A DNA stretch of 64,000 nucleotides. It comes from an uncultured delta proteobacterium. Its GTDB lineage: Bacteria; Myxococcota; Myxococcia; Myxococcales; Anaeromyxobacteraceae. Location: contig CAWHDZ010000027.1 in NCBI GenBank assembly GCA_963828255.1, positions 32,001 through 96,000 of the forward strand. Reading direction: 5' to 3'. The position numbers were made by a program. Positions 18,001-27,000 of the stretch are shown one piece after another; the first letter of the stretch is position 1, and the number at the start of each line of letters is the position of its first letter.

Positions 18001-21000
18001 TCTCGGCGGCCTGTGCGAAGGCGAGGTACTTGCGGTTGGCCTGGCTCTCGCCGGCGAACGCGACGGCGAGGTTCTCCTGGGTGGTGGGCATGCAGCGACC
18101 TCTACCGTTCCCGGCAGAGGCCGCCCATGATCCCGGTCATTTCACCGCAACTGCCATCAGGTCCGGAGGAAGCTCCGCGAGAGGGCCTTCCACTGTGCGT
18201 CGGTGAGGAGCGTGTCCGGTGAACCGACGAGCTCGCCGCCGTCCGCGGCCGCCATGCCCAGCTGGTCCTCGTAGAACCGCGTCAGCCGCTCCCCCTCCGC
18301 GCGCAGCCAGCTGCGGGCCCGCTCCCCGGCCGGGAGGGACTTCCACTCCAGGCCGATCGGCTCGATGGCGAAGAGCCACCCGTTGCCGTAGTTCTCGCTC
18401 TTGGCCAGGGTGGGCTCCCGGAGCACCTCCGGGTTCACCGCCACGATGCGCCCGGAGGCGGGCGCCGCCACCTGCACCTCGCGGTCGCCGCAGGAGAGCG
18501 TCGCCACCGGCTCCCCTTCCTTCACGAACTGCCCGGTCCGGGGCATCTCCACGGCCACGGTCCAGGGGAGGATGCGCTGGGCCAGGTCGTCGAGCCCGAC
18601 CTTGAGGGAGCCGCCCTCCGACTTCACCCAGGTGTGGCCCGGGGAGTAGGCGAGCCCACCGCGGAAGCGCAGGCTGCCCGCCGAGCGGTAGCCCTGCATC
18701 CACATCCGCACCGCGCCGAAGACCTTCCCGGCGCCCAGCACGAGCATCACGGGCGCCAGCAGCACGAGGGCGATGACGACCACGAGGCCGAGGCGGGTGG
18801 CCAGGCCGGCCAGGAAGACTCCAACGGTGGTCAGGGTGTCGATGAAGGCGGTCATGGCGGTCTCCTCACTCCTGCGTCCTGAAGAACTCCCGTGCGATCT
18901 CGTCCCAGTGCTCGGCGTCCAGCTCGCGTGCCATGCCGTGGAGCGGCGCACCGCCGTCGTGCATCGCCGGGGCGAGCGCCATCTCCGGCGCGAGCCGCAT
19001 GGTGAGCTTCCGTCCCTGCTCCTCCACCCAGTTCCTGGCGGCGTCGCCGGTGAGCAACTGGGCGGCGTTCTTGGCCCAGCGGGTGGGGCGCACCTTGAAG
19101 AGCCAGCCGTCGCCGTACGGCGTCGAGCCGTCGCGCGCCATGGCCGGGTTCGCGGCCACCACCTCGCCGTCCACCGGGGAGAGCAGCCCCACGCTCTTGC
19201 CGCCGGCCTCGAGCCTCACGGCAGCCGCGCCCTGCTCCACCATGCTGCCGGTCCTGGGCAGGTCGATCCCGTCCAGGGCGCCGATCATCCGGTGTCCGAG
19301 GTCGTCGAGCCCGACCGCGACGGTGCCGTCCTCCTCCATGCGCGCCCAGGTGTGCCCCGGGTGCAGCGCCACGTCGGCAGGGACCTCGAACCATCCGGCG
19401 GTGACGGCGCGGGGCAGCTCGGCCGCCTTGGCGACCACCGCCTTCGCGGCTTCCTGCCCGCCGTGGATGAAGCGCCAGAATCCGACGAAGAGGATGAGGT
19501 AAGCGACGGCCAGTCCGTACTCGACCAGCTTTGCGGAGTATCCGGTGAGGAATTCGTTTCCGTGCATGGCGGACCCTGTGGTGGCGGCGGCGGGTGGTGC
19601 TACGGGATGCGGTTGAGGAAGGCGATGACGACGAGTCCGACGACTGCGAAGGCGGTGGCGGCGATCATGGCGTGCTCCTGCTGGTGGTTCGGTTTGCTCC
19701 CGGTGGACCTTGCTTCGTCTGTTGAGTGCTTTCGCAACAGGTGGGCCAGATCCGGGGTCGCAGCACCCATCGGGAAAAACCTCCTCGTGGCGGATGCTTG
19801 GAACGTGCTCCGGCCGACGCCCCTCGGAGTGTTGAGAATCTGGTCGGTGAGGATTCCGACGCGAAATCCGGCCTGGATCGGTGTCAACCAACCGTGATCC
19901 GGGCGGGATCCAGCGCCCGGGCCCCCTTGTCACGAATTCCCACGACCCGGCGGGATTCTCGACACCTCGCAGGGGCGTAGGCGCTTTCCAGGGTTGGACT
20001 AGTGTGCCCGTTCGGGGGCGTGATGAAAAACAACGTGAAGATTGCCCTGACGCTGGCGACCGCTCTTGCCCTCTTCTACCTGGTGGTCCGATTCTTCCCT
20101 CTCGGCCGGTGACCAGGACGCGCCTTGACGCTGGAATGTGCTGGGGGACGCACTTTCCGATATCGGCCGACCGGGTCAATAAATGTCCACCCGGGGCGGG
20201 TCGCCTATACTCGACCTGATTTTCCATCTCGGCAGGCTGACCCAGGGGGACCGTGATCAACGAACGGGAGATCGCCGCGCTGGTGGCGCGTTTCGGCATG
20301 GGCAACCAGCTGAACGGCGGCCTCCTGCTGGTGGACGACGAGCCCAACAACCTGGTCGTCCTGCGCGGTTTCCTCGACGACGAGGAGCGCTGGCAGGTCC
20401 ACACGGCGGCCTCGGGCGAGGAGGCGCTCGCCATCGCGGAGAGGACGCCCCTCGACGTGGTGGTGACCGACCACCGCATGCCGGGGATGACCGGGGTGGA
20501 CCTGCTCGAGAAGCTCCGGCGCCTTCGTCCGGACGTGGCCGGCATCGTGCTGACCGGCTACGCCGACATGGACGCCCTCGAGGCTGCCATCAACCGGGCC
20601 GCGGCCTTCCGGTTCCTGCGCAAGCCCTGGGAACCAGCCGACATCCTCGAGGCCATCCAGCAGGCCAGCAACATGGTCTCGCAGCGGCGCATCATCGAGC
20701 GGCTGGTCTCCCTCCTCTCCGAGCGGGGCGAGATGCTCCGCGCCTCCTTCGAGGAGGTGAAGCGGCAGCAGCAGGCCCTCCTCCACCTGGAGCGGATCGG
20801 CACAGTGGGCAAGCTGGCCTCCGGCGTCACCCACGACCTGCGCAACATGGTGACCAGCCTGCGCGAGGCCGAGTACCAGCTCTCCCAGCACTCGGCCTCC
20901 CCCGAGCTGCGCGAGACCTTCACCCTGGGGCTCGCTCACGTCGAGAAGATCCTCTCCACCTTGAAGACGCTCCAGGATTTCGCCCACGCCGGGAAGCTGG

Positions 21001-24000: not shown

Positions 24001-27000
24001 GGCGCGCCGCAAGCTGATCACGCTCTCCTTCTCCAGCGGGGACAGGCCGTGCACCGTCTGGTGCGACGCCGAGCGGCTGGAGCGGGTCTTCGTCAACCTG
24101 CTCTCCAACGCCATCAAGTTCACGCCCGTGAACGGACACGTCACGGTGGAACTGCGCGAACAGCCCGACGACGTCGAGGTGGTGGTCACCGACGACGGCC
24201 CGGGCTTCCCCCCCGACCGGGCCGAGCAGATCTTCGAGCGCTTCTACCAGGTGGACATGGCCGACCGGCGCGCCCACGGCGGCACGGGGATCGGGCTCGC
24301 CCTGGCCCGCGAGCTGGTGATGCTCCACGGCGGCTCCATCCGCGCCGAGAGCGACGGACGGACGGGCGCCCGCTTCACCGTCAAGCTCCCGAAGGGGCGC
24401 GGCCACTTCCGCCCCGAAGCCCTCGCCGAACCGCGGGACGCCGGGGAGGGGGCGCGGGGAGAGCCCGGCCTCGACTGGGCGGTCCAGCTCGCCGCCCGCT
24501 CCGAGTTCCGGCTGCTCGACATCGAGGAGGCCACCGAGCGGCGCGCCGTCGAGCGGGACACCGACGAGGAGGCCCGCCCGTACACGGCGGTGGTGGTCGA
24601 GGACCACCCCCACATCATCCAGCTCGTGCACATGTCGCTGCGACGCCAGTTCAAGGTGCTGACCGCCTCGGACGGGCTGAAGGGGCTCGACCTCGTCCTC
24701 CGGGAGCGCCCGAACCTGGTGGTCACCGACCTCATGATGCCGGGCATCGACGGCCTGGCGCTCACCCGCAGGCTTCGCGAGGAGCCGTCCACCCGCCACA
24801 TCCCCATCATCATGCTCACGGCGCGGGGGGAGCTCGACGACCGTGTGAAGGGGCTCGAGACGGGGGTCAGCGCCTACCTCACCAAGCCCTTCTCGCCGAA
24901 GGAGCTTCTCACCGCGGCGCGGGAGCTGGTCAAGGCGAAGGAGCAGACCGCCGATCTGGTGCTGACCCAGCGCATGGAGTCGCTCGAGATGGTGGCGGCC
25001 GGCCTGGCCCACGAGATCAACAACCCGCTCAACTACCTCAAGAACGCGCTGGGGCGGGTCCGGCTCGACGCCGAGAAGGTGCTGGGGCTGTGCGGTGAAG
25101 CGCGCGAGCGGCCGCTCGACCTTGCGGGACAGGCCCAGGTGGACCGGCTGGCGGCGCGGATCCGCGAGCTGCTCGGGGTGGCCGACTCCGGCGTGAAGCG
25201 CATCGGATCGACCGTCGAGCTGATGAGCCGCTACGGGCGGGCCGGCTACAAGCGGGAGATGGTGCCGCACGACGCCTGGGCGGCGGCCCACGCCGTGGTG
25301 GGGATCGTGCTCCCGGCCACCGGGCGCCACGTGAAGGTGGACCTCGACCTCGAGGGGGACGGCTCCCTCGAGTGCGTGCCCGAGGAGTTCAGCCAGGTCC
25401 TCTCCAACCTGGTCCAGAACGCCATCGAGGCGGTGCCCGAGGAGACGGGGAGGGTCCGGGTGCGGGGGCGCGTCGAGGACGGCGAGCTTCTGATCTCTGT
25501 GAAGGACAATGGGCCGGGGATCCCCCCGGAGGTGGTCCAGAAGCTCTTCACCCCCTTCTTCTCCACGAAGGGGCCGGGGAAGGGCGTGGGGCTCGGCCTC
25601 ACCATCACGCGCCGCGTGGTCCAGAGCCTGGGCGGCAGCCTCAACGTGACGAGCGCCGTCGGCCAGGGGACGGAGTTCCTGGTCCGCGTGCCGCGAACGC
25701 AGCCACGGCCGCGCGCGCTCCCCGCGCCGGGCTGATGGCGCTATGCTGCCGGGATGCGGATCCCGGTCGCCCTGCTCGCGTCCCTCGCCGCGACCCTGTT
25801 CGTCGCCGCCTCCTGCTCGGGGAACAACCCCAGGCCGCCGCTCCTGGGCGCGGGCGGGTGGTCCTGGTCACCGGCCGTGGCGGGCGACCATCCGCTCCCG
25901 GTCCTGTGGTGGGGGAGCACGACCCCCTCGCCCCTCCCGCTCCTCGACGGCGGCGACTGCTCCGCGTCGGGCTCGGTCCAGGCTCTCGTGGCCGAGGTGG
26001 GCCAGCCCCTCGCCGTGGGGATCTCGGTGACCTGCGCGGGAGGCATTCCCGCCATGCTCCCCGTCGCCTGGCCCGGCGGCGCCGTTCAGGCCCTCCCGCT
26101 GCCGGCGGGGGCCACCCAGGGAACGGCGCTCGCGGTCGTGTCCCGCCCCGGAGCGACGCGGATCGCCATCCCAGACCGGTTCATCGGTGGCGCGACGGGG
26201 ACGACCTCACCCCGCCCGACGTTCTGGAAGAACGGCGCGGTGGTGGCATGGGACCCGACGGACCTGCTGCCCCCCGGCCACGACGCGGGGGTGGTGACCA
26301 GCATCGCGGCGACGGACCAGTTCGTGCTCGCCGCCGGCGTCGTCCACCGCACGGGGAGCTCTCCGCCGGCCTACTCCGGGATCATCTGGCTCTTCGACCT
26401 CGACTTCACCGCATCCACCTGGGAATTCCTCCCCCTGCCGACCGACGCCGGCGGCGCGAGCTTCGGCTCCTGGGTCTCGATGGTGATCGAGGGGACCACG
26501 ATCTGGTCGGCGGCCGCCATCTGGAACGCCGCCGCCGCGCCGAAGCCGGTGGTCTGGACGGACGACGTATCGGTGCCCTGGTTCGGGGTGGAGTTCGGGA
26601 CGGCCCCCTGGGCCTCGCCCACCGGCCTCTCGATGGTCGAACTCGTCCCCTACTCGAGCGGCTGGGTCCGAACGGCCTCCACGAGCGGACCGCCGCAGCC
26701 CGCCATCTGGGCAGGGCCCGTCCTGTCCCTCCTCCCCGCCGCCGACCCGTCGAATCCCATCGGCGCGGGCGAGTCCATCGCCATCTACCTCGAGGGGGCC
26801 TACGTGTCCGGTGAGAGCCTCGCCGGCGACCCTTCCAGCCCCTCGCGCAGGCTGGCCGTGCCCGCCATCTGGTCGAACGGGGCCCGGACCGATCTCGGCA
26901 CGCTCTCCGCGCCCGGAGCCGGTCCGGCCATCTCCGGACCGCTCTTCGGCTGGTGGCGCCTCCCCGGCACGCCCGTGACCTCCCCGCCCGACTGGCCCTA

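Follow-up and report, generated by a model that had tools for sequence, protein, structure and literature searches.

A three-gene locus in an uncultured member of the Anaeromyxobacteraceae probably encodes an unstudied self-signalling circuit, composed, as its domains suggest, of an enzyme distantly related to the Ralstonia enzyme PhcB, a membrane receptor and a relay kinase. The genome-wide survey's note had placed a 517-aa gene between a receiver-kinase and a membrane sensor kinase, and all three ORFs were found on the + strand of the window, the 64,000-nt stretch of DNA analysed here. They encode a REC-HK protein, a barrel-methyltransferase protein and a 6TM-HK-REC-HK protein in that order (Table 1); the first two genes are separated by 44 nt, and the stop codon of the second abuts the start codon of the third (TAG-ATG). 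We consider it fairly likely that the three genes form a Phc-like synthase-receptor module connected to a relay resembling LvrAB; the module's function at the level of the signal is inferred. We did not find it described in the literature.

Table 1. Features of the locus (20253..25735), numbered from the first nucleotide of the window.
Feature	Position	Strand	Length	Basis
Conserved non-coding element: CGATATC ... GGTCAA ... TGTC ... GGGTCGCC-TATACT	20158..20211	+		Upstream alignment
REC-histidine kinase (PhcR/LvrB architecture)	20253..21482	+	409 aa	Pfam and motif scan
PhcB-family SAM-dependent methyltransferase	21527..23080	+	517 aa	hhalign, BLASTP, AlphaFold, fold match
PilZ-type barrel (about aa 39-137)	21641..21937	+		Pfam PilZ, six-strand barrel in model
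Membrane hybrid kinase	23081..25735	+	884 aa	Pfam, motif scan
PhcS-type membrane sensor domain	23081..23665	+		hhalign, profile with control, alignment

Alignment shows the middle gene to be a full-length PhcB homologue. Its product is organized into a PilZ-type barrel, a helical middle domain and a class I methyltransferase with a KPxGYxGDY motif; Pfam returned PilZ at residues 55-137 (24 bits, just exceeding the cut-off of 22.5) and Methyltransf_12 (E 0.001). The direct alignment formerly lacking for the proposed PhcB type was provided by hhalign, in which the enzyme matched the Burkholderiales PhcB group end-to-end, barrel and middle domain included, with a profile probability of 100% over 460 columns. 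The middle domain alone reached 94.9% and the barrel alone 56% (E 1e-4), and the strand order is identical in both models. In BLASTP, Ralstonia orthologues were 31-33% identical to the enzyme over about 270 aa, with R. soli, R. psammae and R. edaphi standing in for R. solanacearum PhcB; none of the 80 Burkholderiales loci is titled as R. solanacearum complex, and a published phcB primer matched no genome contig exactly and, with 3 mismatches allowed, nothing in one locus (L154). The other PhcB-family motifs, GPAxE, GLxDY and WxLxYR, are present as well, and 24 of 28 near-invariant residues of the methyltransferase domain are identical in the PhcB group. The AlphaFold model (pLDDT 93) has its best fold match in 3OCJ (Z 20.2, rmsd 3.1, 257 aligned), which is the top VIA match for both models (Z 20.2 and 19.5); this Bordetella parapertussis protein, to which the entry title assigns no function, differs in having 300 aa and 15-20% identity.

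PhcB makes 3-OH PAME/MAME, which is sensed by PhcS (accessible parts of PMC7694676 and PMC13532016). In an IQ-TREE phylogeny, several starred branches lie between the window clade (100/99) and the PhcB clade (100/100), and the enzyme does not share a branch with Ralstonia and Cupriavidus PhcB. Because of this separate, well-supported branch and the low identity, substrate and product may differ from those of PhcB, and since no PhcQ was found either, 3-OH PAME/MAME is not necessarily what the enzyme makes. With the enzyme off PhcB's branch, the fatty-acid methyl ester product implied by the survey is putative.

The PilZ domain does not distinguish the enzyme from PhcB: PhcB carries the same barrel with the motifs lost, so the barrel is not a myxobacterial add-on, and we infer that it is an ancestral regulatory domain of the enzyme family. 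The window barrel, six-stranded in the AlphaFold model, has the motifs RxxR (R44, R47) and DVSQNG (D75-G80). Among family members, 143/146 carry RxxR and 138/146 carry [DN]x[SAT]xxG, whereas RxxR and DxSxxG are retained in none of the 80 Burkholderiales loci. Binding of c-di-GMP by PilZ domains is defined by RxxxR together with [D/N]hSxxG, according to the accessible part of 10.1101/814665. Like the canonical receptors MapZ, YcgR and BcsA, the window protein matches Pfam PilZ, adopts the barrel topology in its model and possesses the second motif with a hydrophobic h, preceded by an arginine pair 28 residues upstream; unlike them, it has RxxR instead of the RxxxR expected 20-30 residues upstream, which occurs at that distance in 29/146 members only. 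The enzyme may be gated by c-di-GMP, as was suggested earlier, but such gating is unproven because the first motif is not the canonical one. The conserved site comprising the arginine and DxSxxG motifs probably serves to bind a ligand and adjust the output; more speculatively, the shortened arginine spacing could point away from the c-di-GMP dimer to another ligand, for example 3',3'-cGAMP, which is made by some deltaproteobacteria. Fold searches used whole proteins, and their matches were filled by the methyltransferase domain rather than the barrel; the barrel on its own, searched by sequence against the PDB, yielded chance matches only. With the PhcB N-terminus as query, the clusters ranked highest in an Atlas search were unnamed, and a PilZ cluster (27% of members) scored just 0.86, which serves as a lead only. 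The comparison also places the unexplained R22C mutation of PhcB (PMC6989110) on a degenerate PilZ barrel.

Profile comparison shows that the downstream kinase starts with a PhcS-type six-helix sensor. Pfam detected HisKA, two HATPase_c domains and Response_reg, and the motif scan resolved a layout of 6TM sensor, HK1 (H224), REC (D550) and HK2 (H644). Myxobacterial and Burkholderiales sensors aligned in hhalign at 96.8% (E 2.3e-10), and a myxobacteria-only profile scored 71 PhcS domains at 15.6-39.1 bits, with none of 107 other multi-helix membrane proteins exceeding 3.5. The domain is intramembrane, without a periplasmic domain. Within the sensor alignment D42, R58 and G113 are invariant and I96, M99, Y110 and F165 near-invariant, the D, R, M, Y and G being common to PhcS-type domains. 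Signal perception by PhcS is described as unresolved in PMC13532016; the family alignment names D42, R58, M99, Y110 and G113 (window protein numbering) as candidate ligand-binding residues of PhcS, and 8WCN provides a solved template. This template, the 6TM domain of Pseudomonas aeruginosa ImcA, is matched by the sensor profile at positions 10-184 (E 8.7e-5); ImcA, a remote relative of the sensor, is described in an iron-response module, and the accessible part of that description gives no ligand for the membrane domain. Atlas clusters carry MASE8 at 0.95 and one PhcS domain matches MASE8 (25.7 bits, E 1.5e-5), but 12 of the 13 sensor domains tested, including that of the window, do not. Assignment to MASE8 (Pfam PF20968, at least 26.2 bits) was rejected, as even the best relative stayed at 25.7 bits.

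The upstream gene is shown by its domain content to encode a predicted REC-controlled kinase like PhcR and LvrB, with Response_reg at 25-136 and HATPase_c at 294-399 (Pfam), D73, H194 and the N and G1 boxes (motif scan) and, as in PhcR, no DNA-binding domain. Its full-length identity to PhcR of Ralstonia and Cupriavidus is 22-27% (E about 1e-22), a level that any REC-HK could reach and no proof of PhcR orthology. The survey's view of the genes as parts of phcBSR therefore stands in part. With the Phc system of Ralstonia and Cupriavidus (phcB-phcS-phcR-phcQ), whose output passes through the LysR regulator PhcA, the trio shares an enzyme with three matching domains, a PhcS-type sensor kinase directly downstream of it under strict linkage, a REC-HK partner and an HK2 resembling the PhcS kinase (about 30%, HEINNP box). 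It departs from that system in its R-B-S order, the extra HK-REC module of the sensor kinase, the barrel motifs and the missing PhcQ, for which a C-terminal profile returned nothing at E 1 from the six-frame translation of the source genome. Pairing of a sensor-HK-REC-HK protein with a REC-HK protein also recalls LvrA-LvrB of Leptospira, in which LvrA phosphorylates LvrB (accessible parts of PMC5863495 and PMC13269768), and LvrA is the best NCBIfam match of the 884-aa kinase. Identity with LvrAB was rejected: the match reaches 317 bits against a cut-off of 1200, and the input of LvrA is a cytoplasmic PAS without membrane segments (PMC5863495) rather than a membrane sensor. Neither Lvr paper contains the word methyltransferase, whereas the window trio includes such an enzyme.

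The reported conservation of the three-gene order in two families was confirmed among the loci fetched for close orthologues (families f1 and f8), 28/31 of which keep R-B-S. This count includes three loci with a gene interrupted in the assembly (L034, L036, L062) and three that end at a contig end (L051, L055, L058); in the remaining three (L059-L061), the enzyme is present with neither kinase beside it, and no sensor was found in genome G139. A close sensor was detected in 78/82 genomes with the long enzyme versus 0/80 without any enzyme match, and in the source genome both are single-copy and adjacent. The enzyme-sensor pair is kept while the output module behind the sensor varies between loci (HK; HK-REC-HK; nucleotide cyclase; HK-REC-PP2C; HK-REC-cyclase; or SpoIIE phosphatase with RsbW/STAS-like genes). 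Barrel-less short members of the enzyme family are widespread, and none of the 15 loci fetched for them from myxobacteria has the sensor alongside. Genes flanking the trio differ from genus to genus. No export gene was found near the trio, and neither 22 neighbours selected from 12 related loci nor 4 window stretches yielded a dedicated acyl-chain gene. A taxon is named for 2/20 distant cluster representatives, so the present documentation of the range outside Myxococcota and Burkholderiales is thin. Sensors extend beyond the distribution of the enzyme: close sensors without an adjacent enzyme occur (L274, L276, L288, L289), and weaker ones are common (L278-L287).

In the proposed mechanism, the enzyme would transfer a methyl group from SAM to the carboxyl of a small acyl substrate; as the trio has no acyl-supply gene next to it, this substrate would probably come from general fatty-acid synthesis. 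The resulting neutral ester would partition into membranes and leave the cell, and the sensor would bind it within the membrane and switch HK1. HK1 could then phosphorylate two receivers, at D550 in the same protein and at D73 in the upstream one, and these receivers would switch on HK2 and the upstream kinase in a manner comparable to the LvrA-LvrB relay; the final regulator would be encoded elsewhere in the genome.

The same architecture might serve a circuit without any density signal, the enzyme methylating a lipid-like molecule so that internal state (acyl-chain pool, membrane status or SAM supply) is reported, or inactivating the sensor's ligand. An intramembrane sensor without a periplasmic domain, the lack of export and acyl-supply genes nearby, the regulatory barrel and the iron signalling of ImcA are in line with this. 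We nevertheless consider it unlikely, since the only branch of the family to have been studied produces a signal that is secreted (PMC7694676 and PMC11960443) and sensors persist after enzyme loss, as expected of listeners to an external signal. It is quite improbable that the enzyme is a protein methyltransferase modifying the neighbouring kinase, by analogy with CheR and the PilZ adaptor MapZ, here fused. Weak CheR matches (PDB E 0.2; Pfam CheR in 38/52 PhcB-group members, best E 9e-4), the known PilZ-CheR interaction (10.1101/814665, accessible part) and tight translational coupling point that way; against it, the fold searches ranked 3OCJ and, for the most part, small-molecule methyltransferases highest, with CheR not among the matches listed, the catalytic-domain invariants are common to PhcB, and the enzyme tracks the membrane sensor domain rather than a cytoplasmic domain able to be a substrate.

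Least probable of all is a true phcBSR orthologue making 3-OH PAME or 3-OH MAME under c-di-GMP control. All three parts are homologous or alike in architecture, DxSxxG is intact, the source genome has 13 GGDEF matches, and 30 of the 120 homologues listed (hand count) bear the JGI name 'EF 3-hydroxypalmitic acid methyl ester biosynthesis protein'; yet this name is an automatic family-wide label that extends to members only about 30% identical to the window enzyme, and the different branch, RxxR in place of RxxxR and the lack of a detectable PhcQ speak against orthology. A bolder version of the synthase-receptor module, which we put forward tentatively and at low confidence, takes the trio as an ancestral Phc form: the autoinducer synthase would be switched directly by a cyclic dinucleotide through its RxxR-type PilZ barrel, and the 6TM lipid receptor would, depending on the lineage, be wired to a kinase, phosphatase, cyclase or Ser/Thr kinase. 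The barrel site would have been lost both in Ralstonia PhcB and, separately, in the phosphatase-linked branch, and PhcS would be the hybrid kinase minus its HK1-REC module.

Literature descriptions of Phc signalling were found only for Ralstonia and close Burkholderiales. Should the module produce a diffusible ester, many Myxococcota would possess an autoinducer system that has escaped study; gating of the synthase by a cyclic dinucleotide would tie signal output directly to the state of the second messenger, and were the ancestral form correct, Anaeromyxobacter-type bacteria would possess an unrecognised ester autoinducer with output gated by a second messenger. RNA-library contigs of relatives (run X1, records 2-7; 7-33 differences each) overlap parts of all three genes, possibly from library DNA, and none bridges two genes by 31 letters. 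No consensus sigma-70 promoter was detected upstream of the trio, nor a sigma-54-type match on the + strand (the single nearby match, 19734-19748, is on the - strand), and Rfam had no match within the 64-kb window, hence no annotated c-di-GMP riboswitch. The upstream element is near-invariant in 6/6 aligned upstream regions of close relatives while its flanks diverge; it contains a likely -10 box, accompanied by a weak -35 and possibly by a regulator site. The system is testable, because two cultured species, Anaeromyxobacter paludicola (P0043, 62%) and A. oryzae (P0082, 59%), have close homologues.

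All three open reading frames that the genome-wide survey's note had placed side by side were found, intact and adjacent. They encode a receiver–histidine kinase (REC-HK), a PilZ barrel–methyltransferase (the enzyme) and a 6TM-HK-REC-HK sensor kinase, whose start directly abuts the stop codon of the enzyme gene. Motif scans indicated retention of the phosphorylation sites D73 and H194 in the REC-HK protein and H224, D550 and H644 in the 884-aa kinase, and the GC content of the trio (0.70–0.72) is that of the window. The enzyme is single-copy in this genome (G000) and shares 79%, 62% and 59% identity with named homologues from Anaeromyxobacteraceae, Anaeromyxobacter paludicola and A. 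oryzae, respectively, which points to a host probably related to Anaeromyxobacter. Upstream lies a conserved element whose TATACT box makes it, judging from sequence, a candidate promoter; an Rfam search of the window gave no match, and RNA-library contigs did not demonstrate expression of the trio.

Features of the locus (window coordinates)
Feature	Position (strand)	Length	Remarks
Diguanylate cyclase gene (membrane + dCache + GGDEF)	~12650-15254 (-)		5 kb upstream of trio; broken in this assembly
GcvH-like tandem pair	18157-19570 (-)		hydrophobic N-termini; divergent from trio
Short ORF	20023-20112 (+)	29 aa	one hydrophobic helix; 5' of promoter-like element
Candidate promoter element	20158-20211 (+)
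REC-HK gene	20253-21482 (+)	409 aa	ORF intact
Enzyme gene (PilZ barrel + methyltransferase)	21527-23080 (+)	517 aa	ORF intact
Membrane-HK-REC-HK kinase gene	23081-25735 (+)	884 aa	ORF intact
Lipoprotein-like gene	25754-27091 (+)	445 aa	no Pfam family; directly 3' of trio

Among five aligned relatives, the 29-aa ORF is similar in two (L035, L195), degenerate in L034 and absent from L036 and L037. The same-genus loci examined also have genes like the GcvH-like pair beside the trio, and a short hydrophobic ORF directly upstream of the pair is kept in aligned relatives. The lipoprotein-like gene likewise lies 3' of the trio in same-genus loci L034–L037. In the diguanylate cyclase gene, the reading frame changes near 14310, and the GGDEF domain contains an in-frame TGA near 13432.

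The enzyme had been called PhcB-type from a database name that family members with as little as about 30% identity to it bear too. From named genomes we collected phc operons (among the matches listed, 80 of 591 confirmed loci were kept), with Ralstonia soli, R. psammae and R. edaphi standing in for the R. solanacearum-complex PhcB itself. Loci of these species and of Cupriavidus comprise four genes (enzyme, membrane kinase, REC-HK and REC-unknown), in agreement with the phcBSRQ description in PMC8578825. Their enzymes measure 464–470 aa in Ralstonia, and arginine 22, on the second strand of the barrel, is the site of the mapped PhcB R22C mutation (PMC6989110). The direct alignment previously missing gave 31–33% identity over about 270 aa with the three Ralstonia proteins (BLASTP, E 1e-30 to 8e-34), and comparison of profiles from 146 enzyme relatives and 52 PhcB-group proteins aligned 460 columns, from the N-terminal barrel through to the end, at 100% probability. 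Run separately with a wide profile, the middle domain reached 94.9% and the barrel scored 56% (E 1e-4), but a close profile gave only 8–10%. In the methyltransferase domain, 24 of 28 near-invariant positions are identical in the PhcB group. AlphaFold models of the enzyme and PhcB (pLDDT 93 and 78) have an identical order of elements and share their best fold-search match, the Bordetella parapertussis structure 3OCJ (Z 20.2 and 19.5). On these grounds the enzyme is homologous to PhcB. Orthology, in contrast, was not upheld: when 57 methyltransferase domains selected from the 175 of a FastTree tree were analysed with IQ-TREE, several starred branches lay between the enzyme's clade and the PhcB clade.

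The membrane part of the 884-aa kinase matches PhcS weakly in pairwise comparison (E 5e-5 to 0.3). A profile built from myxobacterial sequences only (24 loci plus the window) scored 71 Burkholderiales PhcS domains at 15.6–39.1 bits, against at most 3.5 bits for 107 other proteins with at least four helices, and hhalign of the myxobacterial and Burkholderiales sensors returned 96.8% (E 2.3e-10). D42, R58 and G113 are invariant across 54 aligned sensor domains. This controlled comparison bears out the proposed PhcS-like sensor, which is single-copy in G000. The domain also weakly resembles MASE8, and the ImcA 6TM domain (PDB 8WCN, E 8.7e-5; PMC10904736) is related to it distantly. HK2 of the 884-aa kinase is similar to the PhcS kinase (about 30%, E 1e-24 to 1e-25), and PhcB's closest relatives in the tree have HK-REC-HK sensors as neighbours; together these observations suggest that PhcS may be a shortened form of an HK-REC-HK sensor kinase. 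The cytoplasmic layout of both kinases is that of Leptospira LvrA–LvrB, in which, according to PMC5863495 and PMC13269768, LvrA phosphorylates LvrB and receiver phosphorylation switches on the LvrB kinase. LvrA differs in its PAS input, and the 884-aa kinase reaches 317 of 1200 on NCBIfam LvrA.

The conserved gene order was borne out in wide loci from 31 genomes with close orthologues (30 of 57 close genomes plus one other, G410): REC-HK, enzyme and sensor kinase follow one another in 28, three with an interrupted gene and three cut by a contig end, and the enzyme stands alone in the remaining three. Locus family f3 has the Ralstonia order enzyme–sensor–REC-HK in 4/4 loci. We searched 201 genomes of the order separately with enzyme and sensor profiles, using thresholds chosen after score gaps were seen and lists compiled by hand. 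Of the 82 genomes that have a long enzyme, 78 also have a close sensor, defined by E 2e-35 or better (77/81 without the unpublished genome G162; related genomes are not independent). Among the 39 whose enzyme matches are all short or partial, 3 have one; among the 80 without an enzyme match, none does, and eight of these show a weak sensor match. Two of the three exceptions lie at contig ends. Across the phylum, the enzyme family is present in 177 of 401 genomes, short forms and G162 counted. The most telling result is that the pairing of enzyme and sensor domain persists while the output behind the sensor varies between loci (HK, HK-REC-HK, SpoIIE phosphatase with RsbW-like/STAS-like genes, nucleotide cyclase, HK-REC-PP2C or HK-REC-cyclase). 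Orphans of both kinds, sensor and enzyme, count against a strict pairing, as do the 21 of 79 scored metagenome loci, many on short contigs, that have no sensor within 3.5 kb, and the 15 short-form myxobacterial loci, all of which lack one.

The barrel is a PilZ domain by Pfam (24 bits), as proposed, and its second motif, DVSQNG, is intact; the suggested c-di-GMP gating was not established. Binding is defined by RxxxR plus [D/N]hSxxG (10.1101/814665), but the enzyme lacks canonical RxxxR, found within the expected interval in 29/146 members. The first motif reads RxxR in 143/146 and the second is intact in 138/146, in an alignment collected by similarity to the enzyme and thus biased in favour of the motif. 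Such strict conservation among members that share only 24–30% identity speaks for a site in the barrel that binds a ligand or a partner. The PhcB group has no arginine loop and carries NLQRKS in place of the second motif; intact barrel motifs occur in 0/80 of its loci, among the matches listed. Long enzymes without motifs fall into two distinct groups, one made up of PhcB plus three metagenome relatives, the other being the phosphatase-linked branch; starred branches force two changes, and a single change appears in 0% of bootstrap trees. Assuming a root among the short forms, PhcB would derive from an intact-motif ancestor.

Domain content, homology, linkage and intact catalytic residues are established for the trio. 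The survey's observation holds, and its interpretation is supported in part. In the branch of the family that has been studied, PhcB makes 3-OH PAME or MAME, sensed by PhcS (PMC7694676, PMC11960443, PMC13320629, PMC13532016). By analogy, the enzyme would form an ester, SAM-dependently, on an acyl substrate probably drawn from general fatty-acid synthesis, since no acyl-supply gene was found among the neighbours scanned. The sensor domain would detect the product inside the membrane, a two-step relay would pass the signal on, and the final regulator may be unlinked to the trio, because no PhcQ-type domain was found in G000. As a whole, we regard this scheme as fairly probable.

The least credible reading is a strict equivalent of phcBSR under c-di-GMP control. 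c-di-GMP is probably available in the host, given 13 GGDEF matches in G000, and the trio would operate like the Phc system, but orthology to PhcB was not upheld, no PhcQ-type domain was found and the barrel lacks the RxxxR motif. Methylation of a protein by the enzyme is scarcely more credible. An internal or ligand-inactivating role of the enzyme or circuit is unlikely, yet deserves more weight than either. Relative to these, the ester-signalling scheme remains our preferred account.

Among the open-access papers that literature searches listed, no title or abstract opening describes this module; subscription reviews of Phc signalling and supplements lie beyond that scope. This locus adds the RxxR spacing, the degenerate barrel of PhcB itself, the two separate groups without motifs and a controlled test of sensor homology.

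Related modules were seen elsewhere. A second Myxococcota enzyme branch (L068–L078, L181–L191) has a degenerate barrel and lies with a sensor–SpoIIE phosphatase and RsbW-like and STAS-like genes; its output is probably a partner switch. Some genomes (G031, G179) hold both this module and the trio type. Other fusion partners of the sensor domain are Ser/Thr-kinase-like domains in L218, L264 and L270 (judged by eye), nucleotide cyclases in L071, L177 and L178, and, in L003, a Rhizobium GGDEF-phosphodiesterase that adjoins a short enzyme (35 bits). Close sensor homologues without an adjacent enzyme gene, resembling orphan receptors, occur in L274 (genome G007), L276 (genome G175), L288 and L289; conversely, the enzyme stands alone in L059–L061. 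In L079–L082, a short barrel-less enzyme and a small gene converge tail to tail; the one small gene scanned (L081) encodes a stand-alone PilZ protein. A conjugative Paraburkholderia graminis plasmid (L001, NZ_CP024936.1, 5434-9809) carries a phcBSRQ-like operon whose third gene is cut down to a lone receiver domain.
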